Positions 17,821 to 64,000 of a stretch of DNA of 64,000 nucleotides are shown here, one piece after another; position 1 is the first letter of the stretch, and each line of letters begins with the position of its first letter. The stretch is from positions 615 through 64,614 of the forward strand of contig JAFYDR010000158.1 in assembly GCA_017544725.1 (NCBI GenBank), written 5' to 3'. Position numbers and translations under genes: made by a program. This DNA is from Kiritimatiellia bacterium. GTDB taxonomy: Bacteria > Verrucomicrobiota > Kiritimatiellia > RFP12 > UBA1067. The notes below the pieces were generated by a model. The model worked only from the letters and a program-made list of their open reading frames with translations. It made no database searches and had not been told where the DNA came from.

Positions 17821-17851
17821 TTTTTCGTCAATGTGTGTGGAGGTGATTGTC

Positions 17852-18451: not shown

Positions 18452-18462
18452 AGGAATAAAAA

Positions 18463-21526: not shown

Positions 21527-21530
21527 AATT

Positions 21531-25849: not shown

Positions 25850-25878
25850 ACCGATCTCCTCATTTTCTTTGACGGAAA

Positions 25879-25907
25879 AGCATACTAAACTTTTGCGTTT
25901 TCAGCAA
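25879..25907 (-). promoter_or_regulatory. Putative promoter TTGCTG-17-TATGCT in the conserved leader of paralog 1
   Basis: Minus-strand -35 at 25902-25907 and -10 at 25879-25884. It lies within a ~70-nt block conserved upstream of three caspase-FGS genes. Confidence 0.35.
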
Positions 25908-26010
25908 AGAAAAACGGAGGGGCGCTCCGCGTACTCTGCGACCTCAGCGGCTCTGCGTGAGAACCCAAACGCGGAATCTGGGCTTAACACGCTTAACCGG
26001 CCAACTTGCC

Positions 26011-27216
26011 TCACTCTGGAATCCAACCTTTGCCTTTACAAGAGCGGCAAGTTACATCCCCTAATAAACAACGGGGACAGGTTTCGGAAACGCGACCTGT
26101 GCCATCACATACCTGACACTTGGTTTTCCGCTGAACCATTCGAAATCCATTGCCGCTGCACGTATCACACTTGACAGGAATACACCCGTTCACATCATGA
26201 TACATACTGCTTTGACATAACACATAACCGCTGCCGCCACACTGATTGCACGGCACGAACATCAAGAACCCATTCTGTTTCCCGTGCGTACCGTTGAACA
26301 TCCAGACGCATTCCGTGCAAGGGCATCTGACATACCAGTTTCCATCCAATGCCCCACGCATACACTGATTGGGACACCGGATTAGCCGGTTCCCCAAGGT
26401 GCAATCCGAACATGTCTCCGTCTCCGTTGTCTGGATGTATCCATGATCACACGCATCACACCGTACCGACTTCTTCCCGGATCCATGACATTCAGGACAG
26501 GTTACACGCCCCTCCCCCTTACAATCGCCGCATTTGCGAAGCCAATGTCCTTCCTCCTTGGCTGCTTTGCGGTCGCCATCCAACATGCCAGGTGTCCATA
26601 CGAGTTCCGAAAGGCCATCCGCGTCTTTGTCTTTTCGAGAATATCCGGGCATCGGCTGCCAATAATCAGTCGGATGCTTGGCGGTGCTGATGGAAACCCA
26701 GTGCGGATATTTCACGCTTTCTATTCCCGCACGCCACTCCGTGTTCGAGCCACCCGTCCAGACATATCCTTCTTCTTTCGGTTTCCACTGGCCTTCTTTC
26801 TTCGTTGAAACCAATCTCCTGTTCTGTGGATGCGTCATACCCGCTTTCCACTTGACACGTTCCGTCCCGCGTATCCACTCATACCCGACAGATGTACTGC
26901 GCCATGTGCCCTCCTCCGTAGCCGAGACCAATTTCCCGTTCCGGGGATGCGTCACGCCGACCTTCCATTCGGTGCGCTCCGTTCCGCGCACCCATTCATA
27001 CCCGGCAAGCGTACTGCGCCATGCGCCCTCCTCCGTATCCGCGACCAGATACTTGTTCTGTGGATGCGTCATACCAACCTTCCATTCGACCAGATCGGTA
27101 CCATCCCCCGCCCACACATATCCGGGCGGAAGTTGCGGACGTGTTTCCTGTCCGGCAAGCGCAGTCAAACACCACAACAATAAACAGATTCGCACAACCC
27201 CCAGTCTTCTCTTCAT
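26011..27216 (-). CDS. Secreted protein: 39-aa tandem repeats + array of DnaJ-type CxxCxGxG zinc fingers
   Basis: Signal MKRRLGVVRICLLLWCLTALAG (ATG 27216 after GGGAGGG; the track start is TTG 27222). Repeats have the form GY.W..G....EWK.G.THP.N..LV....EG.W. The C-terminal half has CGDCKGEGRVTCPECHGSGK, CNQCGGSGYVLC, CDTCSGNG, CQVCDGTGR, CRSCKGKG. Confidence 0.7.
   Translation of the reverse strand: MKRRLGVVRICLLLWCLTALAGQETRPQLPPGYVWAGDGTDLVEWKVGMTHPQNKYLVADTEEGAWRSTLAGYEWVRGTERTEWKVGVTHPRNGKLVSATEEGTWRSTSVGYEWIRGTERVKWKAGMTHPQNRRLVSTKKEGQWKPKEEGYVWTGGSNTEWRAGIESVKYPHWVSISTAKHPTDYWQPMPGYSRKDKDADGLSELVWTPGMLDGDRKAAKEEGHWLRKCGDCKGEGRVTCPECHGSGKKSVRCDACDHGYIQTTETETCSDCTLGNRLIRCPNQCMRGALDGNWYVRCPCTECVWMFNGTHGKQNGFLMFVPCNQCGGSGYVLCQSSMYHDVNGCIPVKCDTCSGNGFRMVQRKTKCQVCDGTGRVSETCPRCLLGDVTCRSCKGKGWIPE
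26770..27123. repeat. 117-bp (39-codon) tandem repeat x3 (plus degenerate 4th) inside the CDS
   Basis: Protein residues 34-72, 73-112 and 113-151 align column by column. Confidence 0.8.
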
Positions 27217-27370
27217 CACCAACCCTCCCTGTCTATCAACTTCTCCGCATTCCCGCTTCTAACTTTTCGCCCGACGGTGCCTACCACCGCCTTCATATCC
27301 ATTCTCGTGTACAACGCGGACCACAGATCAACTGGTTATCACCGTTACAACACATCCACGGTTGTCCCGC

Positions 27371-28785: not shown

Positions 28786-31473
28786 TTACTCCCTCTCGAT
28801 GATCCGTTCCTGCTTATTGATTCCCCGAACCAAGCCATGCAGACTGTAGTAAGACCGCACGGTTTTTCCGTTCTCCCTGCGAATGGCAAGGATTTTGTTC
28901 TTGTCACTACCCACATCCTTCTCTGGTATCACCAGATAAACGGAAGCGCATTTCGTCTCCGGGTCAATCTCCACGCATCTGTCGTTCCCCGTCGAGGATA
29001 ACGGCAGTCCGATATTCTCGTACATCTTCGCCCCGGACCGGATTCCATAGGCGACGATCTCGACAATGTAGGGAAGCTGACTCCGCACACTTTCCATGCC
29101 GGATTGGATCTCGCGAATCCGTTGGGCGTTCGCCGACGATGCGCCTTTTGCGGACGGCAGCGTTTTCGCCGTCTGCGAAAGGTTTTGCAGACATTCCTGC
29201 ACCGCGCGGACTTTCCTGTCCGCCCGCAATGTCTGTCCGGTTGCCTCGGCCTTTTTCTGCGCCTGCTTGAGCAGATTCTCGCAGACGTCCAGCCGCTCCT
29301 TCCACTCCTGCTCGATGCGTTTTCTCTCCTGCTCGGCACGGGCCTCTTCTTCCCTGCGCTTCGCGTCGAGCCGATCCTTGAGATTTTTCCGGAGCGAGGC
29401 AAGCACACGCGACTCCTCAGGCGTCGCAACCAGTTTCTCGGCTTGATTCGCCGCCCCGTCAAAGGCCGCCGCGTCCAGCGATTCGAGCGCCGTCTCCGCC
29501 ACCTCCATCAACTGCCGCAACCGAGCCTTCCTGGCAACCTCCGCGATCGCCTGTTTCAAGCGTTTGTCGGCCTCTCCGATCCGATGTTCACCGGAGGCGA
29601 TTTCCGCCTCCTGCATGGGAAACCGGTAATCAGGGGCGTTCAGCTGCCTGAAGTCCGGGTATTTCGCGTACTGGGAAAAATTCGTGTACACGGCAAACAC
29701 CGCGCGATAGTCCGCCAGCAGCTCTGACTGGATCGTTTTGATCGCGTTCGTAAACGCTACGCAATACCCATCCGCCTCTTTCATCGCCCGGCGCATCCTG
29801 TCCACCTGCAATCCGGAATCGCATAACCTCGCCCAAAGATCGTTTCGTATCGAGTTCTCTGGCGTGATGTGCAACATCGGGAAATTCCACAGTCCCTTAA
29901 CCCGCTTCCGCACTTCCTCCCAATCATTGGCGCGTTGCGTTTCCGGATACTGCAACAGCTGTTCGATCTCGCCGGCAAGACGCTGATTCTCCCGTTCACA
30001 GTACCGCGCCGCACCGCAATACGCGCCATACACCATGCCGGCTAGTAACAGAATCGCCGCTGCGCGTTTGAGAAAGGTGAAGAAACGTTGCCTCCGGTGT
30101 ACCTTTTCAGCCGCCAACTCGTCGCAAGCCGCCGAAACGCTCTGGCGCACCCACTCCATATAATCGATGCCCTCTCCGGTGTCCACGTTGAATCCGTAAA
30201 GCACCGGGGCGAATGTGGTTTCCGCCTCTTGAGCGACATTGTCGGCAAGCTGTATAAGCGTATTGTCATCGCGGATCCGGGATGTTGTCCCGGTTTTGAT
30301 GACTTTCAGTATCTGCCGCATCCAGACCTCATCCACCTTCAGCCGCCCCCTCCACTTATCATGGGCAGCCTTCACATCATCGTCCGCTATCGTCGCGTTA
30401 CGATAGAGGATCTGCGTACGAGACTGGTTCAAGTTCCCGGGGTTGCCGACATACGCGAGACACCCAACCCTGAACGAATCTGCCGCCGCAATAAATTCTC
30501 TCAGAACCTGAAGCCGTTCCGTTAACACCGAACGGATAGCGAGCTGACGCGCGAACTCGTTACGCAACCGGAGATACTCCAGATATCGATTTTTCAATTC
30601 GTATAGAGCATCTCCCTTCCCCGCCACGATCCCACCGACCGTGAGCAAGAAACCGAAAAGCCCGTCCGACTCGATTGACGGCGGCACCGCGTTCTCGGAA
30701 TTCAGCTCGTTTACCGCAGAGACGCAAATAATCGGGACCTTATGATTCTGAACCTGTTGCATGAGGCTTTGCGCACCGCGTTCGCAGAGATACAAGGTCG
30801 GGCCACCAGTATTCTCAATCGTTTCCCGGACCAGATGCGTCTGGGTGAGGACCAGCAGCGATTTTCGGGCAAGCTCCGCGTCTTTTCTCAACAGCCGCCA
30901 GAAGGTATCCACCGAGTCCTCGAAGTTCTTCCGGAGAGCCTTTCCGGTACTGCCATCCGGATATGCTGCGGCGTTGATAAACAGGCAGACGAGCGTCGCC
31001 TCCTTCACGGCTTGGCGGATTTCCTCGACGCGGAACTCCCCGGAACTGGACACCGATCCACTCGCTGAGAGCAACGCATCATCCGCCGCAGCACCCGCCC
31101 CTGAATAGGAAGCACTCTCGCCGCCAAAGTCCACCGCGAACGCCTTGCGAATCTGTTCGCCCGAACAGTCCATCGTCGCCAAGTCAAAGATCGGCCGCGC
31201 ACCCGTATAAACCGTCCAGTGGAGCTGGGTCATCTCGTCCTCTCGGGTGTTGGCGAGCCACTCCCTGTTGTTACAAAGCTCGCTGTACTTCCTGTTCACC
31301 AGCTTCCTGGTTTCGTCGCTCTGCGGTTCGAGACGGAAACCGAGCGGCGCAGCAGTACCGCCCTCCTCCAGCAGCATATACTTCATGCCCAAGACGGAAA
31401 GGAATACGGTCTTCCCGCTTCGCTGCACCCCCAGAATAAACACCTTCGGAACTTTCTGGTTTTCTGTCGTCAT
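28786..31473 (-). CDS. Membrane-anchored TRAFAC-like P-loop GTPase, paralog A (long coiled-coil C-terminal region)
   Basis: G1 GVQRSGKTVFLS, G3-like MDCSGEQ, G4-position LVLTQTHL, G5-like ICVSAVN, conserved ESDGLFGFLLTVGGIVAG. One mid-protein TM (AAAILLLAGMVYGAYCGAA), then a helical/coiled-coil tail. Confidence 0.7.
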   Translation of the reverse strand: MTTENQKVPKVFILGVQRSGKTVFLSVLGMKYMLLEEGGTAAPLGFRLEPQSDETRKLVNRKYSELCNNREWLANTREDEMTQLHWTVYTGARPIFDLATMDCSGEQIRKAFAVDFGGESASYSGAGAAADDALLSASGSVSSSGEFRVEEIRQAVKEATLVCLFINAAAYPDGSTGKALRKNFEDSVDTFWRLLRKDAELARKSLLVLTQTHLVRETIENTGGPTLYLCERGAQSLMQQVQNHKVPIICVSAVNELNSENAVPPSIESDGLFGFLLTVGGIVAGKGDALYELKNRYLEYLRLRNEFARQLAIRSVLTERLQVLREFIAAADSFRVGCLAYVGNPGNLNQSRTQILYRNATIADDDVKAAHDKWRGRLKVDEVWMRQILKVIKTGTTSRIRDDNTLIQLADNVAQEAETTFAPVLYGFNVDTGEGIDYMEWVRQSVSAACDELAAEKVHRRQRFFTFLKRAAAILLLAGMVYGAYCGAARYCERENQRLAGEIEQLLQYPETQRANDWEEVRKRVKGLWNFPMLHITPENSIRNDLWARLCDSGLQVDRMRRAMKEADGYCVAFTNAIKTIQSELLADYRAVFAVYTNFSQYAKYPDFRQLNAPDYRFPMQEAEIASGEHRIGEADKRLKQAIAEVARKARLRQLMEVAETALESLDAAAFDGAANQAEKLVATPEESRVLASLRKNLKDRLDAKRREEEARAEQERKRIEQEWKERLDVCENLLKQAQKKAEATGQTLRADRKVRAVQECLQNLSQTAKTLPSAKGASSANAQRIREIQSGMESVRSQLPYIVEIVAYGIRSGAKMYENIGLPLSSTGNDRCVEIDPETKCASVYLVIPEKDVGSDKNKILAIRRENGKTVRSYYSLHGLVRGINKQERIIERE

Positions 31474-31540: not shown

Positions 31541-33667
31541 TCACGAATCGGGAACGAGAACAACGCGGAAGCCTAGGTTGTGGTCACGGTGGCCCGGTCC
31601 ACCCCAGCTTCGGGATGCGGAACGGCAGAGGTCTGCGTCATGCTTCCAGCTCCCGCCACGAATCACGCGGTACGTTCCTTGGGATGGCCCGACCGGATCG
31701 GTCACGCTTCGGCTCGGATAGTCCCCGTACCAATCCGCGCACCACTCGCACACATTCCCGTGCATGTCGTACAGACCCCAGGCGTTGGATGCCTTCGTTC
31801 CCACCGGATGAGGTTCGTTTCCGCTGTTTCCGCCATACCACCCCATCCCATCCAGACTCCCCGTACCGCTGTAGGGAGTGTTCGTCCCCGCCCGGCAGGC
31901 ATATTCCCATTCCGCCTCCGTCGGCAGACGCATTCCGCAACCAGTCACCGCGTTCACCTTTTCGACGAACGCCTGACAGCTGAGCCAGGAAACATTCTGT
32001 TGGGGCAGCTGTTTCTCACCATCCGCAAATCCCTTGCTTTTCAAGTAGTCCAGCACCTTACCGAAAGTAGTCAGCTTTTCCGCTTCTTCCTCGGAAATCG
32101 TGGCTCCGAACTCCTCTTCAAACCCCATGACCAACTCAACAGCATCCAATGAATCCGCGCCCAGATCGGAAACAAACGAAGCGTTTCTGGTTACCTGACC
32201 GGCATCAACCCCCAGTTGCTCGATGACAACATCCCGGGCCTTCCGTTCCATCGTTCCGGCAGACGGATTTGTTTCCATCACACTGTCCCACTGTTCCCGC
32301 GTCACGGGAAACCGCCCCATCCAGAAACCCTTGGTCAACGTCACGCGATGCCGAACCTCCCGGCCGTCGCGACCGCTTTCGGACATTGGACTGCCCATCT
32401 CGAACGTACCGGGCGGACACCACCGGAACTCCATCTTCACCTGACCCGGTAGCACGATCTGCTTCGTCTCCCCCGCCCGCAAAACGGGGGGGGGCGGCAC
32501 CGACGGAGCATCACCATAAACGGATAGAAACATCTTCACGAGCGGCTTGGCGTCAAGTCCTACGCATTCGGCGTACAGACGGACAAAACCTTTCCCATAG
32601 ATGCTCGCTTGAACACGCCGATAATCATCGTTCTCCAAATCTTGGATGATTTGGGCAAGCAGTCCCGTCGCGGAGGCAACTTGAGCGACAGAGAGTTTTT
32701 TCGCTTCCCGCGCATTCCGCAGAATTTCGCCCAAAGTCGAATCGCCCGTCGGTTGGGAGACGTTTGCCGTCCCTTTCGCGGCGCACTCGGCACAACAGTT
32801 TGACGATGCCTCATAATGCCGCTTGCAGAGGTAGTCCCGGCCGCAGATACGACACTGAAAGGTCTCCGATTCCTCATTCCGAAACCCGCAGGAAGGACAT
32901 TTCACAATCCGAGGCGACACCGTAGTACGCCCCGCGACAAGCACCACGTGTCCCCAGTTGGCGGACATTTTGATTTCCGGCGTCTGGTTCAACCGAAGAC
33001 GGTTCTCGCGGGCAATCTCGCCCATCTTGCCGTACACCAGCTGGGCGAACGACTGGTCGAACGCCAGCTCACCCCCGTTCCGCCGACATCCGTCTATCAC
33101 GCGGTCCAGCGCCAGCGAAAAGACACCTCGCCGCTCCGAAGGCAACTCCAGCGCACACTCTCCGGGAGCGCATGAACGCATCACCGCCAACCCGCCGGAT
33201 CGCACGTTCTTCACATAGCTGTCCGCCGACGGGAGAAGGTCGCGCGTTTGTTCCGTGCCCCGCGTCGTGAACGGATTTGACTGGCACGCATCCAAGATGA
33301 ACATACGGTTGAACCCTGTTCGCTCCGTCTTGGCCTGAAGCATCCCGAATGGGATTCCCGCATAATTGAACTGGATGTTCTCATAGAAATCATCCCGGCA
33401 AAACAGCAGATGTTCGCCGCCCGGCGCGATGAACCCATGTCCCGCAAAGTAAAAAAGAAATTCGTCGCCCGCGCCAAGTCCTTCCGTCATCCTGACAAAT
33501 TCTTTCATCACCTGGTCACGGTTCGGATTCGTCAGCAGGCCAGCCTCGTAACCGATTGCACGAAACTGCGAGAGTATGAGCGCCGCGTCATTCGCCGCGC
33601 ACTGCAAATCATGGATGCTCCCGTCATCGTATTGGTCAACCCCTACGAAAAGTGCTTTCCGTTTCAT
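31541..33667 (-). CDS. Caspase-zinc ribbon-RodZ-like HTH-FGS protein with an acyl-carrier-protein module inserted in the FGS domain, paralog 2
   Basis: Start MKRKALFVGVDQYDD (ATG 33667; the track start is 33685). FYFAGHGF / ILDACQS. CPSCG...CRICG...CAEC. HTH LGEILRNAREAKKLSVAQVASATGLLAQIIQDLENDDY...GKGFVRLYAECVGLD. ACP-like VIEQLGVDAGQVTRNASFVSDLGADSLDAVELVMGFEEEFG lies between FGS motifs VTREQWDSVMETNPS and VSWLSCQAF. Confidence 0.85.
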   Translation of the reverse strand: MKRKALFVGVDQYDDGSIHDLQCAANDAALILSQFRAIGYEAGLLTNPNRDQVMKEFVRMTEGLGAGDEFLFYFAGHGFIAPGGEHLLFCRDDFYENIQFNYAGIPFGMLQAKTERTGFNRMFILDACQSNPFTTRGTEQTRDLLPSADSYVKNVRSGGLAVMRSCAPGECALELPSERRGVFSLALDRVIDGCRRNGGELAFDQSFAQLVYGKMGEIARENRLRLNQTPEIKMSANWGHVVLVAGRTTVSPRIVKCPSCGFRNEESETFQCRICGRDYLCKRHYEASSNCCAECAAKGTANVSQPTGDSTLGEILRNAREAKKLSVAQVASATGLLAQIIQDLENDDYRRVQASIYGKGFVRLYAECVGLDAKPLVKMFLSVYGDAPSVPPPPVLRAGETKQIVLPGQVKMEFRWCPPGTFEMGSPMSESGRDGREVRHRVTLTKGFWMGRFPVTREQWDSVMETNPSAGTMERKARDVVIEQLGVDAGQVTRNASFVSDLGADSLDAVELVMGFEEEFGATISEEEAEKLTTFGKVLDYLKSKGFADGEKQLPQQNVSWLSCQAFVEKVNAVTGCGMRLPTEAEWEYACRAGTNTPYSGTGSLDGMGWYGGNSGNEPHPVGTKASNAWGLYDMHGNVCEWCADWYGDYPSRSVTDPVGPSQGTYRVIRGGSWKHDADLCRSASRSWGGPGHRDHNLGFRVVLVPDS

Positions 33668-33700
33668 CGTCCCCTGACTCCTCAATTCCTTTGACGGAAA

Positions 33701-33729
33701 AGCATACTAAACTTTTGCATTTTCCGCAA
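33701..33729 (-). promoter_or_regulatory. Putative promoter TTGCGG-17-TATGCT in the conserved leader of paralog 2
   Basis: Minus-strand -35 at 33724-33729 and -10 at 33701-33706; GAGGAG RBS before the ATG at 33667. Confidence 0.35.
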
Positions 33730-33849
33730 AGAAAAACGGATGGGGAGGCAATAGCGGGAGGGGCGCGCTCCGTCGCGACCGCGTGAACTTATCTCACGCA
33801 GTGATTCGCTGAGGCCGCAGAGAGATGAGCCGCCTTCACGCCAGCTCGT

Positions 33850-36324
33850 TCATAACACGGAAACGAGGGCAACGCGGAACCCCTGGTTGTCAGCGGGCGG
33901 GGCATCACCCGGTTTGCAGCTGCGGCGAGCCGAGCGGCAGTCGCTTGCTTCCCGAGACCAGCTTCCGCCGCGTCTCAAACGAATATCACCCGATGACGAG
34001 CCGGTTGGATTGGTCACGCTGGAGGAAGGGTATCCCCCGTATCGGTCTGCGCACCATTCCCACACGTTCCCGTGCATATCGTACAGTCCCCAGGCGTTCG
34101 GCTTCTTCTGCTTTACGGGGTGCGTCTTGTTTTCGCTGTTGTCGCGAAACCACCCCATTTCGTACAAATTCCCCGTGCCGCCGTAGGCACCGGTCGTCCC
34201 CGCGCGGCAGGCGTACTCCCATTCCGCCTCTGTTGGCAGACGCATCCCGCACCCCAACTCCTCGTTTACCTTCTGGATGAATCTCTGGCAGTCTCCCCAA
34301 GAAACCCTCTCCACGGGGCGAAGATCCCTAGCAAGAAAACTCAAAACCAAATCCTTGACGGGAAAACAGGACAATTCCATCCTCTGGAATCTTGCGGGAT
34401 TGCTCTTCATCACGCTTTCCCACTGACGTTGCGTCACAGGCGTATCCGCCATCCAGAAACCCCTCGTCAGCGTTACGCGATGCAACGTCTCATCCCAAGA
34501 CCGTCCCTCCTCGGAAGCCGGGCTTCCTATCTCGAATGTGCCGGGCGGACACCAGCGGAACCGCATCTCCGCGCCTCCCGGCAGTGTGATCACCTTCTCC
34601 GATCCAGGTTTTCTCTCCGAATCCTCACGGATCTCCCTCGCCTTTGTTTTGGAGTGCATATATTTTCTCACCTCGTCCGGCAACCTTTTGCAACAGAATA
34701 AAGAGAGACGAGTCCAAACCCTTCGAATGAGGAAAGCCAACTCCCCCAATTTTTCCTTTGCGGTTTCCGCATAATATGTTAGTTTCCCTTTACTCGCCGA
34801 CTCTTCCCTTTTCTTATTCAGGCGGGAAAGGAAAAACAGAAACAAAAAAATGAAAGGTACGGCTCCGACCACATACCAGAGCCTTGACCACGGCAGAAGC
34901 CATCCAAACCCTAGGTAAAGAGCCGATAGGGCACCCGAAATCGCGGCGCGCATTTTCTTACGGGCTTCATCGTATTGGATTCGTGACACAAGGCTTTCGG
35001 CGCTTGCCTTGACCCATTCGCGGTAGGAATTCAGCCGACTCCCTTCAGTGGAAATCCTTTCTTCAAACCCGTATAACACCGCATCCAATCCAGGAGAGAG
35101 CTCCCGTTCCTTGCGGATAGAATCGCCCAGCGTCCGAAGTTCTTCATCCGTGAAAACAGGCGTTCCGTGTGTCCCTTCCATTTTTTTACAGACTAGGGAA
35201 TAAAGCCTGTCGTACCAGTCCTCGTCAATTACCAAGCGATCACGCCATAATTCGGAAGCCTCACGAATCTCCGCATCCTTACGCGTCGCCTCCTCGTAGA
35301 AAGGCAGTTCCTTCACGGACTCTGCGAGATTCGCTGATTTGCGGACATACCGGAAGCACCTGTTGCGAAAAGTCTCGGCTGCCCGGGCAAAACTTCGTAA
35401 CGCATCCACCCGTTCTGGAAGTGGAGATCGATTGCGCAGGTGACGGGCCACCTCGTTGCGCGTATTCAAGTAGGCGAAATACGAGTTCTTGAGCTTCAGA
35501 AGAGCCGGGCGAGCATCATGGACAAGTCCCGCGACCGACAGCAGGAAACCAAAAAGACCATCCGACTCAATCGTTTCCGGCGGTTTTTTATTGTCATAAT
35601 TCAACTCATTCACCGCCGAGATGCAGATAATCGGAACTTGGTGTCTGTCCACCACCTGCAGGAGGTCAGGCGCACGTCTGCCTAGATAGAGGAACGCCCC
35701 GCCCGCGTTCTGGATCTCCTCTCGCAACAAGTGTGTCTGCGTGAGCACGACCAGAGACTTCTTCGCAATGTCGGGGTGATCGTTCAACAAACTCCAAAAG
35801 ATTTTCACCGTCTCCGCGAAATTCCGCCTCTTCTCCTCACGAACCGCCTCATCACAAGAGGTACCCACATTGATGAACAAGCATACGAGACCAGCTCGAA
35901 ATACCGCCGTGCGGATCTCACGCTGCCGACTCTCCGCCTGCGTCTCGGATGTCCCCAGCAGCACATCCGCAACCATCCCACCGTCATTCCCCGGCGCAAA
36001 CGCCTTTCGGATATCTTCCCCGGAACAGTCCATCGTCTCCAGCGAGAACACATGCCGCCGACCGGTATAGACATTCCAAGACAGCTTAGTCGGATCGCTC
36101 TCCTTTGTAGGCTCTGGCCACTCCCGAATCTCGAGTTTTTGGCATGCGTCGATTACCACATTTCGCGTCACGGTGTTGACCGGCTCCATACGAAACCCAA
36201 GAGCCTCCGCTCTGTCACTGCCGCCGGCAATCATATACTTCCGTCCCAGCACGGAAAGACAGACCGTCTTTCCGCTGGACTGGATTCCCAGAATAACTAC
36301 TTCAGGTGTTGCTCTATTTTCCAT
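33850..36324 (-). CDS. TRAFAC-like P-loop GTPase (paralog B) - 2 TM - FGS domain fusion
   Basis: N-terminus [50 protein letters not shown]. Hydrophobic [39 protein letters not shown]. C-terminal FGS: [59 protein letters not shown]. Confidence 0.8.
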   Translation of the reverse strand: [824 protein letters not shown]

Positions 36325-38869
36325 TCCCCTGTCTCGCTTCGATTTTCGCTCTCTTCAGACGGTTCATGGCCAGTCTGATTCCCAATGCGACCGCCTCACA
36401 ATCCTTGTCCGACTCGGAGAATTGGAAATCCGGACTGTTCAACTGTTCGAAGGTTGGAATTTTCGCATACCGGGAGAGTTGGCGGCACATTTCCAATAAT
36501 CCGTCACGATCCGCAATCAGAGCAGCTTGTACCTTGTCGGGAGCTTCCGCAAACGCCGCGCAATAGTCATTCGCCCGTTTCAACACCTCGCGTATCTTGT
36601 CCAAACGCTCACGGGAGCTGTAGTCTCCGACTCGTTCCAAAAAATCTTCCCGAATGTATGGGGTTGGCGTGATTCCGAGCCACGGATAATTCCTGACCAT
36701 TTGGGCTTTTTCTCGCAAAGCATCCCAGTCGCAGTCGTACACCCGCTCCAAATCCCGCAACATTATTTCGATCTCTTCATCCCTGAACTTGGGGTCTCCC
36801 GACTTCGCGTCAGCCGCATCCGCTGCGGCTTTTGCCTTTTTCGCGCCGTAAATCCCCGACATCCGATTGGTTTCCGGGTTCTTCAAATAACGGGCGATCT
36901 CTTCGGCGATCTGCCGATTCTCATTTTCGCAGTACCATTTCGCGCCGTAATAACCGCCGCATCCGATGACGGCTAGTACCAGCAACGTCACGAGGCGACG
37001 GCGGAATGTGCGGAACCTCTGCTGCCGCCGTGCGCGGTTAGCAGCTGTCAATTCATCCTTGACCTGCCCAATCTCACGCATCGAGATTTCATCCGGATGT
37101 TTTTTGGAGAAGGGATCCCGCACTGCCATCCGTTCCAATTCACGCAGCGCCTTCTTCGCTTCTGAAAATTGCCCCTGCTCCATCTGGCTCCGGACAGACT
37201 TCAACTTGGAGAGGATTACCTCCCTGACTTGCAGCGCTTTCTCGTTGCAATTCATCAGTCCAGAACACTCGTCCAGAATTTTCCGGCGTTCATTTTCAAA
37301 TCCTGAAAGCCGCCACTTCTTCCAATCCAAACCATCGCCGTAATCCTGCCACACGATGCAAAATCGGTCGATGATCTTCTCCAGTTCCTTGCATTGTTCC
37401 GCGAGTTCGTTTGCGGATTGCTCGAACCCGTCCTTCCCGACCGCGCCGCGCAATTGGTTGATTCCCGTCCGGATCGTCTTGACCATGTTCTCCAGCGCAG
37501 CCCAGTCCCCGGATCGCGCGATCGGCATCACCTCTACGCTCTGCCGTACCCATTCTTCATAGTCAATGCCACTGCCGATATTCGTATCGTACCCGTACAG
37601 GAGCGGATCGAACGTGACATTCGCCTCGCGCTTGACGGCATCAATCAGCACAGGGCCATCGGTATCGCGAAACTGGACCGAAGTCCGCCTTCCAACAAGT
37701 TTGAGCATCCGCCGCATCCAGATCTCGTCCACCCGCAACCGATCCCGCCACTTGTTCCCGGCAGACTCGACATCACCGTCCTGTTCCGTCGCGATGCGAT
37801 AAAGGTTCTCGATCCGATGCTGGTTCATATTCGCCGGATCACAGACATACTCAAAGCAACCGTTACGGAACGCCTCCGCCGCAACGACAAACTCCTTCAG
37901 GACAGGGAAACGGCTCGGCAGTATCGCACGGATGGCGAGTTGGCGCGCAAACTCGTTGCGGTGCCAAAGGTACTCCAGATACCTGTTTTTCAACGCGAAG
38001 AGCTTATCTTTCTTCCCCGCCACAATCCCGCCGACCGTGAGCAAGAAACCGAAAAGCCCGTCCGACTCGATCGGGTCCGGAACCATGTTCTCGGAACTCG
38101 TCTCGTTCACAGCCGAGACGCAGATGATGGGAATCTTGTACCGCTCGACTTCCTGCTGGAGATGTTGCGCACCACGTTCGCAGAGATACAGCGATGGACC
38201 CCCCACACTCTCAATCGTTTCGCGGACCAAATGCGTCTGGGTCAGAACCAGCAGCGACTTGCCGGCCAGCTCGGTATCCTTTTTCAGCAGTCGCCAGAAG
38301 GTGTTGACCGTATCTTCAAAATTCTTCTGGAGCGCCGCGCCCGCCCCGCCGGACGGATACTCCGCCGCATTCACAAAGAGGCAGACAAGCGAAGCCTCCT
38401 TTACCGCCGCGCGGATCTCCTCCACCCGGAACTCGCCGGATCCAGACCCCGTTCCGTTCGCGGACAACAGCGCGTCCGTCACCATATCCGAATCGGACGG
38501 TTCGGAAGGTGTTCCGAATCCCTCGGCATCTACCGCGAATGCCTTGCGAATCTGCTCGCCGGAGCAGTCCATCGTCGCCAGGTCGAAGATCGGACGGTCC
38601 CCCGTGTAAACCGTCCAGTGCAACCGGGTCATGTCATCCTCGCTGGTACTGGCAACCCATCTTCCGTTCTTCAGCTCCGCGTACTTTTTCCGTACCAGCT
38701 CCACGGTTTTATCACTCTGCGGAACCAGTCTGAAACCAAGCGGCGCGGCCTCGTTGCCTTGCGCCAGAAGCATGAACTTCGTACCCAAAACAGAAAGAAA
38801 AACTGTCTTCCCGCTTCGCTGCACCCCTAGGATAAACACCTTCGGTACTTTTCGGATTTCCTGTTCCAT
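36314..38869 (-). CDS. Membrane-anchored TRAFAC-like P-loop GTPase, paralog C
   Basis: The N-terminal ~330 aa are near-collinear with paralog A ([53 protein letters not shown]). TM [18 protein letters not shown]. ATG at 38869 gives [15 protein letters not shown], matching A; the track start is GTG 38887. 11-nt overlap with gene B. Confidence 0.7.
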   Translation of the reverse strand: [851 protein letters not shown]

Positions 38870-38926
38870 ACTTTTCTCATGCCCCACGCTGCCACACCAG
38901 ACACACCATGCAAATCCCGCACCGCT

Positions 38927-40675
38927 TCAACAACACCTGATCGCGATGATAACAACCAGTATGATCACGATAACAACAAAAATCCCACAGGACGTGTCAG
39001 AAGAAGGTTTGGGCTGCGGCATCGACTGATGATGAAGTTCCTTCAGCTTTTCCAAGCCTTCCTGGCATCGCTTGTATCGCTGTTTCAGATCTGTCATCGC
39101 GACCGAGACCAGATCCCTGTTTTCAGTCGCTCCACAAAGCCTACCGAGTTTCTCAAGACCTCCATCGATTTTGGATGCGATTTTCTGGAAATCATCCACG
39201 GCCTCCGGGAACGAAAATCCGCCTACGACTGACTCCGCCGCGGCAAGGCTTTCCTCCAGTTCCCCGACCTGATTCCGAAGCTTCCCCACCTTGTTCGCCA
39301 GCATCACGGAAATCATCGCCATGCCAGCCCGCACCCAGGCAACGCGATCCTCATACGGAGACCGCCGCAGGTCAATGCTCTCGTTAAACCCGAAGACCGC
39401 GTCCTCTCCGCTTTCCGGAAAGGACTTCATGACACTTGCGATCAAGTCTGTAACGTCCCGGTCGCGAATCTTGCTCTCCACCTCATCCTCTTCCTCGTCG
39501 GGACGAACCAGATTCACGCGCCCGTACGCGCAGAGTTTTTCATTCCACACCTCATCGATCCGCAGACGATCCTTCCACAGGTTCTCCGCCTCGCGGATGT
39601 CACCCTCCACGCGCGTGGTCGCGCGGTATTTACTGCCGGGAAACTTTTCTTTCAGATTCTCCGTATCCTTGAGGTAATCCAAACATCCCTTGCGGAAATC
39701 GGAAGCCGCTTGTGAAAACTTGCGCAAATGGAAAAGACGTTCTGGCAGAGGACTGCATAGCCAAAGGTGCCGTGCGACCTGATCGCGGGAACGGAGATAG
39801 TCATAATACAGGCCTTTCAGTTTCCCCAGCGGGTCTTTCTTCCCCGCCACGATCCCGCCGACCGTGAGCAGGAAACCGAAGAGTCCGTCCGACTCGATCT
39901 TCTCCGGTACCGCATTCTCGGAACTCGTCTCGTTCACCGCCGAGACGCAGATGATCGGAACCTTGCGACGCTCGATCTGCTGCTGGAGATGCGGCATCGA
40001 TTTTTCCAAGTAAAGGAAGGGACCTCCGGCGTTCCGGATCTCCTCACGAGCCAAATGAGTCTGCGTCAGCACAAGCAGACACTTCGAGGCGATTTCGGGG
40101 TGGCTGTTCAACAGATCCCAGTAGCAATCCGCCGCATCCTTCAAGCCTTGGTATTTCTCCGGATCCCGATCCGCCCCCTCCCGCAGCGCGGACACATTGA
40201 TGAAAAGGCAGACGAGCTTTGCCCGATCCACCTTCTCCCGCAACTCGTCCACGCGGCTGTTCCTTTGTGATACTTCACCGGCATCGGTTTTGAGAAGCGC
40301 GTCCGAATTGCCCCCGTCCCCCTGCGATTTCGATTCCCGGTTCAGGAAAGCATCCTTGATATCCTCCCCCGACCAGTCCGAGGTCGAGAGGTCGAATATT
40401 TTGCGCTTCCCCGTACAGACCTCCCAGCGCAATTCGGTGACCGCCCCCCTGACAGTCGCGCGCGGCCATCCGCCCCGCAACAGATGCTCGTACTCGCGAT
40501 TCATCAGCCCGAGCGTTTCTTTGTCCTTGGCGATCATCCGGAATCCCAAGGGCGCGACATTGCCACCGTCGGCGGACAAGGCGTATTTGCTACCCAGCAC
40601 CGACAGAAAAACCGTCTTCCCGCTCGACGGCATCCCCAGAATCACAACTTCCGGCATCCCATCATTTTCCGTCAT
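38927..40675 (-). CDS. Tail-anchored TRAFAC-like P-loop GTPase, paralog D
   Basis: [19 protein letters not shown] (D-x-x-G kept), [35 protein letters not shown]. C-terminal TM [20 protein letters not shown]. Confidence 0.7.
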   Translation of the reverse strand: [582 protein letters not shown]

Positions 40676-42812
40676 TTCTCCCCCCCCCCTTCCCGCTATT
40701 GTTCGTTTGTTGGGAAGATTCCTTCTCCGTTTCCGATGGGTCTTTCCCTGCTTGGTTATTTGGATTGGAATTACGTCGTATAGAATCTAATGCCGCTTCC
40801 GGTTCAAGGGGTAAACCGGGAACCGCCGTATCACCCTGCGCCTGCCTCCTTGCGACTTCTTCGTTGCCCCGAATCCCAGAATTTGATTTCGTGTTAGACT
40901 GCACACTGGACACAGGCGGATTCACGGACGGTTGAACACCAGTATCGTTTTTTGATTCCCGAATAGGAGGATTCGTTCGCGATGAACCAAAGCGATGGTT
41001 TGATGGCTTTTCAACCTCTACCCCAGGTTTCCCCCTATCGGTATCTTCCCGATTTTTCCCCTCCTTACCTCCGCAGGACCTCATGAAAAAGCATACCAAA
41101 CCCAAAGTCAAAATGATCCAAAACCATTTGTTTTTGAACCAGCTTTTTTTACCGCCTTCATCACCATTACCATCATTTTTCTCACTAGGTTTCGGAGAGT
41201 CGGGTACTGATACTATCATTTCCTGATTAAACAAATCGTCCTCTTGACTACTATATGATGAATCAGAGGATGATTCTATCCTTATCTGTCTTTGTGACAG
41301 CTGCTTTATATAGTCATCGATAGCTTTCTGAACTCGCTTATCAAACTCTTGTTTCCAAAGTTCCTTCCATTTTTTACCTCTGTTTTCAATAGTTTCTGCC
41401 TTTACCTCGTCAGAAATCCGCTTTACCTTGTCTCTAAGTTCTTCGATTTCTTTGTCTTTTTTCGTCACTTTCTCTTGGAATTTTTCAAGTTCCCTATCTT
41501 TACTACATATTTTCGCTTCAAGAGTACGTATCGTTCCTGCCTTGATTTGACTGTCGCCCTGCCAATGCGCAATCGTTCTGTCCTTTTCCCCGATTTCAAC
41601 AGTCAGGTTTTGAATCTCCCGCTTATCTTTTTCCCGGAGTTTATCCAGTTGCCGATCCATCCAAGAACGGAACACTCCTCCGAAGAGATCCGCTCGCGAG
41701 AATCGCTCCTCCTGCAAGAAACCTGCCACCTGATCGGCACCGTCGCAAACAGCCATTCCCCGCTCGATTAGTTTGATCAATTGAATCGTCTGCAACCGTG
41801 CTTCCCGATAGTCCTTATGATCGAGAATGGGCATCGTTTCAAAATTCTGATCGATGTATGTTGACCGGATTGCCTTCAGTTTCTGCCGCATGGCATCTAC
41901 GGCTACACGCCAGGAAGAATCTCCTCTTTCGTCAAGGGTCAACGCTTGCACTTCCCGAATCGCTTTTTCCAACCCAGCTTTTATTGCTTTGAGCTGCTTC
42001 AGCAATTCCTCTCGATCGCTCATCTGGTTTTCCAGATCCTCGATGTATTTGACCAGCCCCGTGTACTCCTTCAGTTTTTTTGCGCGCGTGTCTCGCAGGG
42101 TGTTGAGTGCCTCTTGCAACGCTCTCGCCGTCGGATCCTCCTTTGAAAGAATCCCGTTGTTTTCCTTCTTTTTCCTCCGGTAGGTTTCCGCGCATTTGGC
42201 AACGGTTGCCACCTCGCCAAACACCTGATAATCGATCAGCACCGTATGCGCGGTATCCTTCTCCCCCTTGATGACGGCGCGCAGCAGTCCAAGCTGGGTT
42301 TTCTCGCTCTGGAAATAGAAGGAAAGGCGCGTCAGTGCATCCGGCTCCTGCAACCGCTGCTGCGGGGGCACGGCATCCCACCAAGTCGCCAGTTCCTCCG
42401 GTTCCGCACCTTCCAGCCTGTAGTCCGAGCAGTCGATTTCTTCCGGGCGCTTGATTTCCCCCTCCAGAGGCTCACGCATATACTGGTCGCGAATCAGCTT
42501 CGCAAAATCCACCTTATACTCGAAATCTTTCGGAATGAACGCGAACGCCACATAGAGGCTGTCGCGCCCAAAGATGTCGCCGTGGGGACGAACCAAATAG
42601 GTGTAAAGTCCCACCCCCATCTTGCCGCCGATCTGACAGGCAATCGCACCGCCGAACGGGGGCTTGTCCCCGGATGTCTTCGGCATCGTGTCGGTCGCCT
42701 CCAGATAGCGGCGCAGGTCTGCCGCGATTCCTGCCTCGCATCCCTGCCAATCATATCCGTTCCACGCCGTGTAGAAGTAAACATTGATCCTGTTTTTGCT
42801 ATCGGTACTCAT
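40662..42812 (-). CDS. Unknown 716-aa protein: novel N-terminal globular domain - long coiled coil - TM - disordered tail
   Basis: 14-nt overlap with GTPase D start and ATGA overlap with the caspase stop. The N-domain includes GGAIACQIGGKMGVGLYTYLVRPHGDIFGRDSLYVAFAFIP. TM WFWIILTLGLVCFF. The tail is S/N/P/G-rich. Visibly AT-richer than its neighbours. Confidence 0.6.
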   Translation of the reverse strand: MSTDSKNRINVYFYTAWNGYDWQGCEAGIAADLRRYLEATDTMPKTSGDKPPFGGAIACQIGGKMGVGLYTYLVRPHGDIFGRDSLYVAFAFIPKDFEYKVDFAKLIRDQYMREPLEGEIKRPEEIDCSDYRLEGAEPEELATWWDAVPPQQRLQEPDALTRLSFYFQSEKTQLGLLRAVIKGEKDTAHTVLIDYQVFGEVATVAKCAETYRRKKKENNGILSKEDPTARALQEALNTLRDTRAKKLKEYTGLVKYIEDLENQMSDREELLKQLKAIKAGLEKAIREVQALTLDERGDSSWRVAVDAMRQKLKAIRSTYIDQNFETMPILDHKDYREARLQTIQLIKLIERGMAVCDGADQVAGFLQEERFSRADLFGGVFRSWMDRQLDKLREKDKREIQNLTVEIGEKDRTIAHWQGDSQIKAGTIRTLEAKICSKDRELEKFQEKVTKKDKEIEELRDKVKRISDEVKAETIENRGKKWKELWKQEFDKRVQKAIDDYIKQLSQRQIRIESSSDSSYSSQEDDLFNQEMIVSVPDSPKPSEKNDGNGDEGGKKSWFKNKWFWIILTLGLVCFFMRSCGGKEGKNREDTDRGKPGVEVEKPSNHRFGSSRTNPPIRESKNDTGVQPSVNPPVSSVQSNTKSNSGIRGNEEVARRQAQGDTAVPGLPLEPEAALDSIRRNSNPNNQAGKDPSETEKESSQQTNNSGKGGGRNDGK

Positions 42813-44416
42813 TTCAACGACCTCTTCTTCGTACTCTTTCTCTCATTCTCGGCTTGGATGTCCGCTACGATTTGTTTATACACGATATGCTCAATCTCAG
42901 AACACTTACCGCCGTTGACATGATTCTGCCAACCGCTTCTAGCCCAGTCTGGGAAAACATGCTCCCCGCCCCGGTCACCGATGAGTTTACCGACCAATGC
43001 GCAACATTCCTCCAAGATTTCCTGATCGGAAATCTTTCCCCAGTACGCGACATTATCCCACGGTAGGATCCCATTGCCATGTTCGTTGATGCAACAAAGC
43101 ACCCACGCCAGCATCCGCAACTCCTCCGTTCGCCTCATACGCCCAAACTGCGTTGTGGGAGATGGCTGGGGGTTGTTCTCCAGCTCTTGGATCTTTTTCT
43201 CTAGTTCCTCTTTCTCCTTCTTCAGCCTCTCGATCTCGTTCTGAAGTTTCTTCTTGCTCTTGTTTTCCTCTTCCGGATCCTCTGTCTGATTCTCCAGTTC
43301 CATCAATGTCTCCGCGATCCGGATAAACTCGTCCTTCGCGGTTTGATCCGAAGCCAAATCCGTCAACGCATACCTCCTGAGAAGAGTCACCACGATGGTC
43401 TCCTGCGAACTCAGTTGCTCATTGCAGTTGCGCTTTTTCAAGATGCCCTTGCTCAAATTTTTCAACCAGTTGAACACTTCCGACTCTTCCACGGAAAACT
43501 GTTTGATCCACTCTTGGATCTTCTTCTGATCTCCATCCGCCTTGATCCGACCACGCAGCGCCGTCGGCGAAAACGAAAGCGGATAAGTCCCGTCAATCGA
43601 TCCGTCCAAATGCGCCTGCCCCCTAATCGAAAGATAGTTGTTCAACGCGGCCACGGTGACAATCGCATCGGAATTGGCAATATCGCTTTCAATTTTATGG
43701 TTCGGCTCCCCGCCGCGAAGCCCATTGAGGAGATGTATCGTGTACTCGCCATGCATCTGCCCGTCCGCTCCTTCCCTTTCGCGCGCCTTGTCATCAACGG
43801 ATGTCGCCTGAAAACAGATGTATCCGTCCCCCGCTTTCCGCAAGGCATTTTCGAGTCCCACACGTTCACTCTCATCCGCCCACCCGCGCATCCCGTTTTT
43901 CCCCAACGCTCCAGCGTGGCAGCAATCGATGAACATGACGACCTTCTTGCACGGCAGCATATCGCCGATCAACGTTGAATGGATTTCATGTGCGCTCACG
44001 GCCTTGTTCGTATGCAATTTGCCCTTTTCATTGATCGTCGCATCCTTGGGAAGGATATACCCCACCTTGGAATGATTGTTCACCGCAGTACACAGATAAC
44101 CGTGTCCGGCATAATAAAACCAAAACTCGTTTTCCTCTTGTTCGTTCATCTGATCGCTCAACCGGGCAAACGCCTCGTAGATTTCGTCTCTCGTGGGATC
44201 TTCCAACAAGAGAACCCTTTCCGGTTCAAACATACCGCACTTCGGATCCGTCATCAGATCATACATCGCATGGGCATCGTTGATACACCCCTGCAGTTTG
44301 GGGATTTTACCAGTGTAACCATTGACCCCGATTAAAATGCCAAAACGCCGCACGTCGCCGCACAGCTTTTCCCGCGATCCGGGTAGTACATCGCGAGTTC
44401 CCGTTTTCGATGTCAT
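42809..44416 (-). CDS. Stand-alone caspase-like (C14) peptidase with unknown C-terminal region
   Basis: FGILIGVNGY...CINDAHAM, FWFYYAGHGY (His), VMFIDCCHAG (Cys). Coiled-coil KKLQNEIERLKKEKEELEKKIQELE, then a Cys/Trp-rich ~100-aa tail. ATG at 44416 (AAAGGAAG upstream) is preferred; the in-frame start at 44527 would overlap the upstream gene by 37 nt. Confidence 0.8.
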   Translation of the reverse strand: MTSKTGTRDVLPGSREKLCGDVRRFGILIGVNGYTGKIPKLQGCINDAHAMYDLMTDPKCGMFEPERVLLLEDPTRDEIYEAFARLSDQMNEQEENEFWFYYAGHGYLCTAVNNHSKVGYILPKDATINEKGKLHTNKAVSAHEIHSTLIGDMLPCKKVVMFIDCCHAGALGKNGMRGWADESERVGLENALRKAGDGYICFQATSVDDKAREREGADGQMHGEYTIHLLNGLRGGEPNHKIESDIANSDAIVTVAALNNYLSIRGQAHLDGSIDGTYPLSFSPTALRGRIKADGDQKKIQEWIKQFSVEESEVFNWLKNLSKGILKKRNCNEQLSSQETIVVTLLRRYALTDLASDQTAKDEFIRIAETLMELENQTEDPEEENKSKKKLQNEIERLKKEKEELEKKIQELENNPQPSPTTQFGRMRRTEELRMLAWVLCCINEHGNGILPWDNVAYWGKISDQEILEECCALVGKLIGDRGGEHVFPDWARSGWQNHVNGGKCSEIEHIVYKQIVADIQAENERKSTKKRSLK

Positions 44417-44490
44417 GCTCTGCTTCCTTTCTTTTTCGACAACACAGTTCGCCCGCCCCGAAGGAATCGGGACGGGCAGATTCGCATTCC

Positions 44491-54553: not shown

Positions 54554-54585
54554 CGTCCCTGGCTCCTTAACTCCTCTGACGGAAA

Positions 54586-54614
54586 AGAATACCAAACTCT
54601 TGCATTTCCCGCAA
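54586..54614 (-). promoter_or_regulatory. Putative promoter TTGCGG-17-TATTCT in the conserved leader of paralog 5
   Basis: Minus-strand -35 at 54609-54614 and -10 at 54586-54591; AAGGAG RBS before the ATG at 54553. Confidence 0.35.
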
Positions 54615-54654
54615 AGAAAATCGAGCTTTGCCCAGCTCCAAGCAGGAGCAGGGG

Positions 54655-63877: not shown

Positions 63878-64000
63878 ATCGCCGCTTTGCGGCTTGAAAT
63901 TGTTGGCGATGCCGCCAGCAACAGTGACGAGAGCCGCAATGAAAAATGAAAAAGAGAAAAAATGAAGAATGAAGGTTGCGTGTCGCTCGTCGTTTGTCGC
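63868..64000. repeat. Composite intergenic word-repeat element (type 1), truncated by the window edge
   Basis: The 35-nt unit overlaps the stop codon. It is followed by caatgaaaaatgaaaaagagaaaaaatgaagaatgaagg and ttgcgtgtcgctcgtcgtttgtcgc, the same part order as 56477-56600. Confidence 0.75.

Follow-up and report, generated by a model that had tools for sequence, protein, structure and literature searches.

In this study, we analysed gene B (gtpB), which lies in a 64-kb stretch of DNA from a gut Kiritimatiellae bacterium (hereafter the window) as part of a long run of minus-strand genes that extends from ~23.9 to 54.6 kb. On balance, we favour the interpretation that gene B encodes a membrane-anchored, DO-GTPase-like switch with a non-catalytic ligand-binding FGS domain (FGE-sulfatase/C-type-lectin fold), that it works within a conserved caspase-control system of the Kiritimatiellae, and that it is an old fusion whose FGS domain was drawn from a pool shared by this lineage. 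The system has as its core an operon that encodes an AAA+ ATPase, a caspase, the protein p716 and two to four paralogous GTPases, around which additional caspase-zinc-ribbon-FGS genes are found in the window.

Architecture of gene B

The gene and its parts were delimited as follows:

33850-36324, minus strand: gene B (gtpB), 824 aa, with a GTPase, a helical stalk, a predicted membrane hairpin, a linker and an FGS domain (open reading frame and translation)
35515-36324, minus strand: TRAFAC-type G domain, aa 1-270 (motifs, AlphaFold2 model and Foldseek)
36265-36288, minus strand: Walker A motif
36016-36030, minus strand: DxxGE motif
34948-35514, minus strand: all-helical stalk, aa 271-459 (kept in four of four paralogs in the alignment; AlphaFold2 helices at 273-459 with pLDDT >90)
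34816-34947, minus strand: hydrophobic segment(s), aa 460-503, with a strong transmembrane helix at 479-503 after a weaker segment at 460-478
33853-34596, minus strand: FGS domain, aa 577-824 (Pfam PF03781)
34315-34386, minus strand: 24-aa loop insertion in the FGS domain, specific to gene B
33853-33957, minus strand: divergent C-terminal FGS tail after RGGSW, the equivalent of the TvpA-type variable ligand-binding region

The translation contained all of the peptides that were quoted in an initial annotation of the window, in which the C-terminal ~250 aa of gene B had been described as an FGS domain fused to a GTPase chassis. The domain was confirmed by the Pfam family PF03781, which matched aa 592-819 with an E-value of 1.8e-46 and 159.4 bits (cut-off 23.3) over profile positions 8-254 of 255. 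The coordinates that had been assigned to it (33850-34596) proved to be exact, because the homology block begins at K577 (KVITLPGG), which corresponds to nt 34596, and the stop codon occupies 33850-33852. Among the sequences of the PDB, the best match of the domain was TvpA (Treponema denticola variable protein 1, 2y3c), with an E-value of 1.5e-27 over aa 116-243, while the true formylglycine-generating enzymes (FGEs) were matched at ~1e-17. When aligned to human SUMF1 (2aft), gene B shows an Arg at the position of Cys336 and retains the equivalent of C341, so that the cysteine pair of catalytic FGEs (C336 and C341 in RGGS-x-C-x4-C) is incomplete; in the ortholog P0121, the whole catalytic-Cys segment is deleted. 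Because of the TvpA match, the Arg substitution and this deletion, the FGS domain of gene B is, as judged by its sequence, a non-catalytic binding module of the lectin fold. It shares its Pfam family and fold with FGE (SUMF1/FGE; PDB 2aft, 6muj), but differs from it in the broken cysteine pair, in its fusion to signalling or protease modules and in a similarity that is weaker than that to TvpA.

TvpA is the variable protein of a diversity-generating retroelement (DGR) and has in common with gene B a binding domain that is non-catalytic and has a variable region at its C-terminus. Unlike in TvpA, neither a template repeat was found in the 64-kb window, in which all repeats were at the level of paralogs, nor a reverse transcriptase among the scanned open reading frames, and the tail of gene B was nearly invariant, with zero to two nt differences among the contigs of four gut-metagenome runs. 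A DGR-driven diversification of this domain was therefore rejected for the window and these four runs. An exact-pattern scan of the JGI metagenome contigs for further strains gave zero matches. In the gut-metagenome assemblies, the FGS core (33973-34245) recruited hundreds of contigs at >=85% identity, with a summed depth of up to ~1000, whereas the rest of gene B had a depth of 3-7x; this high recruitment is attributed to the very large number of close FGS paralogs that these communities harbour.

The GTPase part of gene B has three paralogs in the same neighbourhood:

28786-31473, minus strand: gtpA, GTPase paralog downstream of gene B, beyond caspase 2
36314-38887, minus strand: gtpC, GTPase paralog directly upstream, with an 11-nt overlap with gene B
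38927-40675, minus strand: gtpD, GTPase paralog upstream of gtpC

Three of the four GTPase genes stand in tandem, overlapping or nearly abutting, and gtpA, gtpC and gtpD share 43-46% identity with gene B in their first 460 aa; the FGS domain is present in gene B only. Three hallmarks of TRAFAC GTPases were found in gene B, namely the Walker A motif GxxxxGK[ST], a switch-I Thr and the Walker B/switch II motif DxxG, and residues G13-x4-G18-K19-T20 (Walker A), T73 and D99-x-x-G102-E103 were invariant across 31 homologs. The Glu that follows DxxG, which is the hallmark of the DO-GTPases (Kaur et al., PMC7159879), was found in D99-C-S-G102-E103, and it was E103 that was among the invariant residues. 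The AlphaFold2 model of aa 1-460 had a pLDDT of 88 and a pTM of 0.87, and almost all of its top Foldseek matches were TRAFAC GTPases (GIMAP7, Fzo1/mitofusin, YcjX, RagA-like, Ral, Gtr1, Irga6 and septin), although with weak E-values (2e-3 and above). Several of the GIMAP/AIG, mitofusin, IRG and YcjX-type GTPases are immunity-related, membrane-associated and dimerising; gene B differs from them in its low sequence identity (~10%), its large helical stalk and its lack of the NKxD motif.

The family assignment was less direct. The Pfam model of DO-GTPase1 scored 15.4 bits in gene B, below the gathering score of 27, and 34.9 bits in gtpD, the sole paralog above the threshold, but over 99 of 271 profile positions. 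A word-index search with the N-terminus of gene B returned three proteins, and the family became visible through an exhaustive profile search, in which a profile of the four paralogs was compared with 1.84 billion representatives and found 438 proteins at E <= 1e-3; remote members that were found in this way exceed the Pfam cut-offs for DO-GTPase2/1. Judged by sequence and model together, the N-terminus of gene B is a divergent TRAFAC GTPase that is related to the DO-GTPases. The GTPase chassis of the initial annotation was thus upheld by invariant motifs and fold, with a DO-GTPase1 match that stays below the threshold.

Between the stalk and the FGS domain, a Kyte-Doolittle scan gave 2.27 for aa 479-503, and the preceding aa 460-478 reached ~1.4 when calculated by hand, which is under the scan cut-off of 1.6. 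The hydrophobic stretch is rich in Lys/Arg on both sides and is probably a helical hairpin; because both flanks are Lys/Arg-rich, the GTPase and the FGS domain may both be located on the cytoplasmic face, although this placement is uncertain. A linker of 73 aa separates the stretch from the FGS domain.

Kinship of the FGS domain and age of the fusion

The window contains five FGS domains, four of which stand behind a Peptidase_C14 caspase domain:

23879-25849, minus strand: caspase 1 (caspase-FGS), Peptidase_C14 then FGS
23879-24574, minus strand: FGS domain of caspase 1, the closest local relative of the gene B FGS domain
31541-33685, minus strand: caspase 2 (caspase-helix-turn-helix-FGS with an inserted acyl carrier protein, ACP), Peptidase_C14 and FGS by Pfam
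50154-51866, minus strand: caspase 4 (caspase-FGS), Peptidase_C14 then FGS
51917-54595, minus strand: caspase 5 (caspase-LysM-FGS), with a transmembrane helix, LysM and FGS

In a MAFFT alignment of the five domains, the FGS domain of gene B was 65.5% identical to that of caspase 1 in amino acids and 68.9% in nucleotides, and 57.9%, 57.4% and 35.3% identical in amino acids to those of caspases 2, 4 and 5, respectively. This agrees with the initial annotation, which had named caspase 1 as its closest counterpart in the window. A search of 5.8 billion proteins gave 7,804 matches at E <= 1e-20, and the 120 best of these were compared by local blastp together with the five FGS-bearing proteins of the window. 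When the relationship of the domain SPECIFICALLY to the local caspases was tested in this way, P0001, a 249-aa standalone FGS protein of another Kiritimatiellae metagenome-assembled genome (MAG), ranked first (67.6%, 308 bits) and caspase 1 second (66.2%, 302 bits), followed by P0002 (62%) and then by TIR-FGS fusions at 54-57%. Caspase 1, as second among the 120 best of 7,804 matches, is hence closer to gene B than random database FGS domains are, and these sequences support the view that the FGS domains of gene B and of the local caspases belong to the same narrow, lineage-specific subfamily. The local copy in caspase 1 is not privileged within it, because this copy is itself far nearer to the extragenomic P0001 (82.7% identical) and P0002 (76%). 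In a neighbour-joining tree of 49 FGS domains with 200 bootstraps, caspase 1, P0001 and P0002 grouped together in 91% of the replicates, and gene B and caspase 1 were sisters in none of the 200.

Evidence for the age of the fusion came from orthologous loci. P0121 has 804 aa, is 74% identical to gene B in the N-terminal part and has the same GTPase-hairpin-FGS layout; it lies between gtpC-like and gtpA-like genes on another contig, L002. In the same species as the window, a copy of gene B that is 98.8% identical (contig L003) follows gtpD and gtpC in the same order. With the tail set aside, the FGS domain of gene B is about equally close to P0121 (72.6%), caspase 1 (72.8%) and P0001 (73.8%); after RGGSW, its tail is 67.9% identical to that of P0121 and 26.5% to that of caspase 1. 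The derived tail KP.D..PADNQG.RV.LV is common to gene B and P0121 and is not found in caspase 1 and P0001. In gene B, the GC content at third codon positions (GC3) steps up from 0.59 to 0.70, and in P0121 it does so from 0.55 to 0.72; the maximum-likelihood change-point lies at codon 574 in both, which is essentially the domain junction, and the values for caspase 1 and P0001 are 0.84 and 0.79. A modular graft is plausible because of this step, which suggests, as far as composition can be read, a trace of an old graft. Most likely, judging from these comparisons, the fusion arose in the common ancestor of the window and L002 organisms or shortly before it, when an FGS domain of the caspase 1/P0001 type was joined to a gtpA/C-like GTPase; the caspase of this locus cannot be named as the donor.

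The domain shuffling inside the locus that the initial annotation proposed would correspond to a recent recombination or gene conversion, in which the FGS domain of caspase 1 was copied onto gene B or the reverse. Such an event would fit the position of caspase 1 as the nearest local FGS domain (66% in amino acids), the longest identical run of 32 nt, a similarity that starts and ends exactly at the FGS domain boundary, and a GC3 step at the junction with a GC3-rich caspase 1. We nevertheless consider it very unlikely. The synonymous divergence (dS) between gene B and caspase 1 is 1.10 and saturated, with 69% nucleotide identity, and is higher than that to P0121 (0.78) and to the extragenomic P0001 (0.74), which is as close by blastp, and caspase 1 groups with P0001 and P0002, never with gene B, whereas P0121 was already fused on another contig and shares the tail. 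In 90-nt windows, the identity between gene B and caspase 1 peaked at 83% solely at universally conserved motifs (one of which is NAWGL.) that are equally conserved in caspases 2 and 4. A repeat search found no near-identical repeats in the window, only paralog-level ones. Sliding nucleotide identity, identical runs, dS and the repeat search thus revealed no conversion tract, and the claim of local shuffling was not sustained.

The same-species copy on L003 shares the 24-aa loop insertion of gene B, which caspases 1 and 4, P0001 and P0121 lack. Caspase 2 carries its ACP in the same FGS loop, and an origin of the insertion as a remnant of this ACP was rejected, since the local alignment was not significant (shuffle p = 0.06).

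Fusions of this kind also recur elsewhere, as the initial annotation had suggested should be checked. Among the top 150 representatives of the GTPase family, a local hidden Markov model found a C-terminal FGS domain in 12 (eight confirmed by Pfam), to which a 1322-aa protein of the contig L008 is added. They include a short soluble form (P0259, 525 aa, a solo gene), a form with a single transmembrane helix (P0205) and long forms (P0132, 1437 aa; P0159, 1570 aa). In the FGS tree, the domains of the GTPase fusions fall into at least five separate clusters among standalone, caspase-linked and TIR-linked FGS domains, and the combination was therefore either repeatedly assembled or long maintained. 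The FGS domain is always C-terminal in these proteins, as it is on other chassis (Kaur et al., PMC7159879). All of the genome matches were Kiritimatiellae MAGs from ruminant guts, and gene B is present in many gut metagenomes.

Gene neighbourhood

Upstream of the GTPases, three further genes complete the operon:

44491-45768, minus strand: AAA+ ATPase (Pfam AAA), its end overlapping the neighbour
42809-44527, minus strand: caspase 3 (Peptidase_C14), with overlapping ends
40662-42812, minus strand: p716, no Pfam family, membrane-anchored, with overlapping ends

The order in the window is AAA+, caspase 3, p716, gtpD, gtpC and gene B, mostly with overlapping ends and with a 40-nt gap between gtpD and gtpC. 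Related arrangements were found in distant loci: a caspase 3-like gene, a p716-like gene, P0132 and a GTPase in L007; a caspase, a p716-like gene, P0159 and a caspase in L009; a caspase, an AAA2-like gene, a kinase, a p716-like gene and a GTPase, with the GTPase-FGS gene and a p203-like gene further on, in L008; and AAA2-like, p716-like, GTPase and p203-like genes in L010. The identities to these loci are only 25-39%, which is why the linkage of caspase, p716 and GTPase is regarded as conserved over a long evolutionary distance. It is because of this linkage, rather than a shared FGS domain, that the caspases and the GTPases are thought to act together, and gene order supports their assignment to one functional system. 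The initial annotation had reached the same view from the shared FGS domains; here the view stands on gene overlaps and conserved synteny.

Caspase 2 (gene at 31541-33667) is a later insertion in the lineage of the window, because it is absent between the orthologs of gene B and gtpA in L002, and the insertion carried its own conserved upstream element. A promoter and terminator scan of the spacer between gene B and caspase 2 found none. The p716 model had a mean pLDDT of 64, with weak TagF-like fold matches of its N-domain (E 1.2e-2); these are too weak for a functional assignment. Pfam holds GAP1 models, and no Pfam match to GAP1, GASH or FNIII was found in the neighbouring open reading frames at E <= 0.01-1. 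Two AAA+ ATPases of the window (44491-45768, with a Vps4_C-like C-terminus, and 47188-48423, both on the minus strand) match IetA and TRIP13 of PADLOC with E-values down to 3e-34, and AAA2-like genes stand alongside the GTPase system in L008 and L010.

Several further observations concern the caspase-FGS genes. In caspase 2, a complete ACP of the housekeeping type is inserted in a surface loop of the FGS domain (aa ~478-555, ~nt 32003-32236); its DSLD phosphopantetheine site is intact, it matches the Aquifex ACP 2ehs over residues 2-74 of 77 (E 2e-22), and a PP-binding domain was listed for none of the 120 best database FGS matches. Possibly, this ACP acts as a bait or decoy that attracts a factor directed against ACPs. 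Immediately ahead of caspases 1, 2 and 5, a 67-nt element was found (25856-25922, 33678-33744 and 54563-54629). Its copies at caspases 1 and 2 share 93% identity, more than the coding regions do (~75%), and the identity to the copy at caspase 5 is 73%. A role as a common promoter or 5' leader is presumed, and a sigma-70 scan of the three elements found none. The caspase 1 gene (23879-25849) has a GC content of 0.66 and a GC3 of 0.84, compared with a GC3 of 0.58-0.73 in the neighbouring island genes, and this outlying composition suggests that it was acquired separately and more recently. In caspase 5, LysM and a divergent FGS domain (35-41% to the others) come after a strong transmembrane helix at aa 341-368; given this order, its sensor part is probably periplasmic and associated with peptidoglycan. 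Caspases 1, 2 and 4 have no transmembrane helix. In the contig L001 (898-4913; Kiritimatiellae MAG GCA_017450695.1), the reading frame of the caspase 4 ortholog is lost after aa 416, midway through its FGS domain, and the complete standalone gene of P0001, which shares 83% identity with the caspase 1 FGS domain, lies ~1.5 kb downstream of this ortholog (2 kb from the break); no caspase remnant was found upstream of P0001 in this contig.

Other genes of the island encode secreted proteins. The protein p403 (26011-27222, minus strand; 403 aa with a signal peptide) has three tandem 117-nt (39-aa) repeats at 26791-27102 and a weak C-terminal match to a DnaJ-type CXXCXGXG zinc finger; the nearby p262 (with a lipobox-like LAGC) and p203 are also secreted, and their homologs recur in L008, L010 and a further contig, L012. 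At the island edge (11271-12872, minus strand, and 17077-23159, plus strand), a Schlafen/AlbA_2-HATPase_c_4-Fic-C protein, a small protein like sigma-70 region 4, an 890-aa papain-family (C1) peptidase and a DUF4384 protein are encoded. The GC content is 0.61-0.67 at 1-10 kb, in the flank with the carbohydrate-use genes, and drops to 0.50-0.58 throughout the island. A 42-nt direct repeat that is 88% identical was found upstream of HlyD/MacB-type efflux genes (56554-56595) and at the end of the window (63958-63999).

Proposed mechanism, alternatives and implications

FGS domains have been described as C-terminal, lectin-like sensors that are coupled to NTPases, caspases and TIR domains (PMC7159879, PMC8195603). 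In the history that we envisage, an FGS module from the caspase 1/P0001-like pool of the lineage would have replaced the C-terminal region of a gtpA/C-like paralog. The FGS domain of gene B would then act as the receptor of one specific macromolecule, which probably stems from an invader or from the cell envelope. Binding of this ligand could alter the nucleotide state of the membrane-anchored GTPase paralogs or the way in which they hetero-oligomerise, possibly together with p716. The altered state would license the caspase-type protease(s) of the operon, as was proposed for the NTPase-FGS conflict systems, and the caspase-zinc-ribbon-FGS proteins could be single-chain versions of the same logic with specificities of their own. 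The initial annotation expected caspases and GTPases to read related signals. The sequences do not show this, since the tail of gene B is just 26.5% identical to that of caspase 1; the window's caspase-FGS proteins probably bind different ligands, because their tails differ strongly (26-47% identity).

Two known kinds of system resemble that of gene B. In the NTPase-FGS conflict systems, a STAND NTPase or AP-GTPase with a C-terminal FGS domain occurs with caspase, TIR or EAD modules (Kaur, Iyer, Burroughs, Aravind, eLife 2021, PMC8195603). Gene B likewise combines an NTPase switch and a C-terminal FGS domain on one polypeptide, and caspase and TIR versions of the same FGS subfamily and multiple paralogs per genome exist here as well. 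However, its NTPase is DO-GTPase-like and neither a STAND NTPase nor an AP-GTPase, the effector caspase is on separate polypeptides, a membrane anchor is present, and no DGR or hypervariability was found in the material described above. The DO-GTPase ("GTPase-centric") systems (Kaur et al., eLife 2020, PMC7159879; Pfam PF19975/PF19993) include planctomycete ones of the GAP1-N2 type, in which FGS effectors occur. Our system shares with them a TRAFAC GTPase with Glu after DxxG, tandem paralogs, a frequent membrane association and the occurrence of FGS in the system. It differs in that GAP1, GASH and FNIII were not detected in the neighbouring open reading frames, in the weak and partial Pfam DO-GTPase matches, in the direct fusion of the FGS domain to the GTPase and in its conserved partners, which are the caspase, p716 and AAA+ ATPases.

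Some observations weigh against the interpretation of gene B as a membrane-anchored switch of old origin in a caspase-control system. Its membrane topology is uncertain from the sequence, and with it whether the FGS domain faces the cytoplasm or the periplasm, and other fusions of the family have one transmembrane helix ahead of the FGS domain. The NKxD motif of guanine specificity was not found in gene B, in which an invariant TQTH (T195-Q-T-H198) follows strand 5 (190-195); because of this replacement, a specificity for GTP rather than ATP is assumed. The grouping of gene B with P0121 had low support in the neighbour-joining tree (43% of the bootstraps), and the GC3 step of gene B taken alone is modest, with a log-likelihood gain of 4.6, like that of a step in gtpC that coincides with no domain junction. 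PADLOC-DB 2.0 had no match for the GTPases or p716 and gave only generic caspase and AAA (IetA/TRIP13-like) matches. Finally, we infer the ligand, the nucleotide specificity and the link between the GTPase state and the caspase from sequence.

Three other explanations of the FGS domain or of the island have to be considered. That the domain is a working formylglycine-generating or related oxidase (SUMF1/EgtB/PvdO type), which serves the many sulfatases of a glycan degrader and is tethered to the membrane by the fusion, might be expected from the name of its Pfam family (FGE-sulfatase), from database relatives that are annotated as "formylglycine-generating enzyme family protein" and from the carbohydrate-use genes in the flanks of the window. 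It is highly improbable in view of the Arg in place of one of the two catalytic cysteines, the deletion of the segment in P0121, a nearest solved relative that is a non-enzymatic binder (TvpA) and the occurrence of its subfamily in fusions with caspase, TIR and GTPase domains, and no sulfatase gene was found among the scanned open reading frames of the island. Alternatively, the FGS domain could be the output, a "neutralising" binder that is clustered at the membrane by the GTPase and sequesters a component of the invader, with the caspases acting independently. An FGS effector that binds or blocks invaders was indeed proposed, and FGS effectors occur in planctomycete DO-GTPase systems (PMC7159879); moreover, the short P0259 is a solo gene with no caspase nearby. 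A later paper of the same group, however, recasts FGS as an invader-sensing, lectin-like domain on NTPase switches (PMC8195603), and the long-form fusions always adjoin caspase and p716 genes. Sensor and effector roles are not separable by sequence analysis, and we regard the output role as unlikely. The island might also be an envelope- or glycan-sensing module for signalling and proteolysis, whose FGS and LysM domains would recognise fragments of the cell wall or of host glycans, with no invader involved. The layout of caspase 5, in which a transmembrane helix before LysM and FGS implies a periplasmic sensor, the signal peptides of p403, p262 and p203, the single transmembrane helix ahead of FGS in several family fusions and the life of the host as a gut glycan degrader would be consistent with this. 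The paralog expansion, the varying gene content (caspase 2 is not in L002) and a GC content below that of the flanks fit a conflict island, as do the PADLOC matches of the AAA+ proteins to IetA and TRIP13, the existence of TIR-FGS relatives and the Schlafen/AlbA_2 gene nearby, so that an envelope- or glycan-sensing role appears unlikely.

We therefore return to gene B as a membrane-anchored, DO-GTPase-like switch with a ligand-binding FGS domain. A more far-reaching version, which we put forward as a tentative possibility, is that the AAA+/caspase/p716/multi-GTPase operon is an undescribed membrane-associated immune or programmed-death system of gut Kiritimatiellae, in which the FGS domain on the DO-GTPase-like switch would be an invader receptor that gates the caspase, and the caspase-FGS genes would form a diversified receptor repertoire, including an ACP bait. 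In the literature searched, there appears to be no description of a DO-GTPase-like protein fused directly to FGS, of the conservation of this fusion alongside a caspase, p716 and AAA+ ATPases or of its restriction to the Kiritimatiellae. The resemblance of FGS domains in this locus reflects a lineage-wide pool, and similar domains in neighbouring genes need not mean local, recent shuffling. Caspase, TIR and STAND/AP-GTPase chassis for FGS domains are already known, and the DO-GTPase-like membrane GTPase adds a fourth kind. Conserved across the Kiritimatiellae, the GTPase-FGS protein with a caspase and p716 offers a compact candidate system for the control of caspases by an NTPase switch and a ligand receptor.

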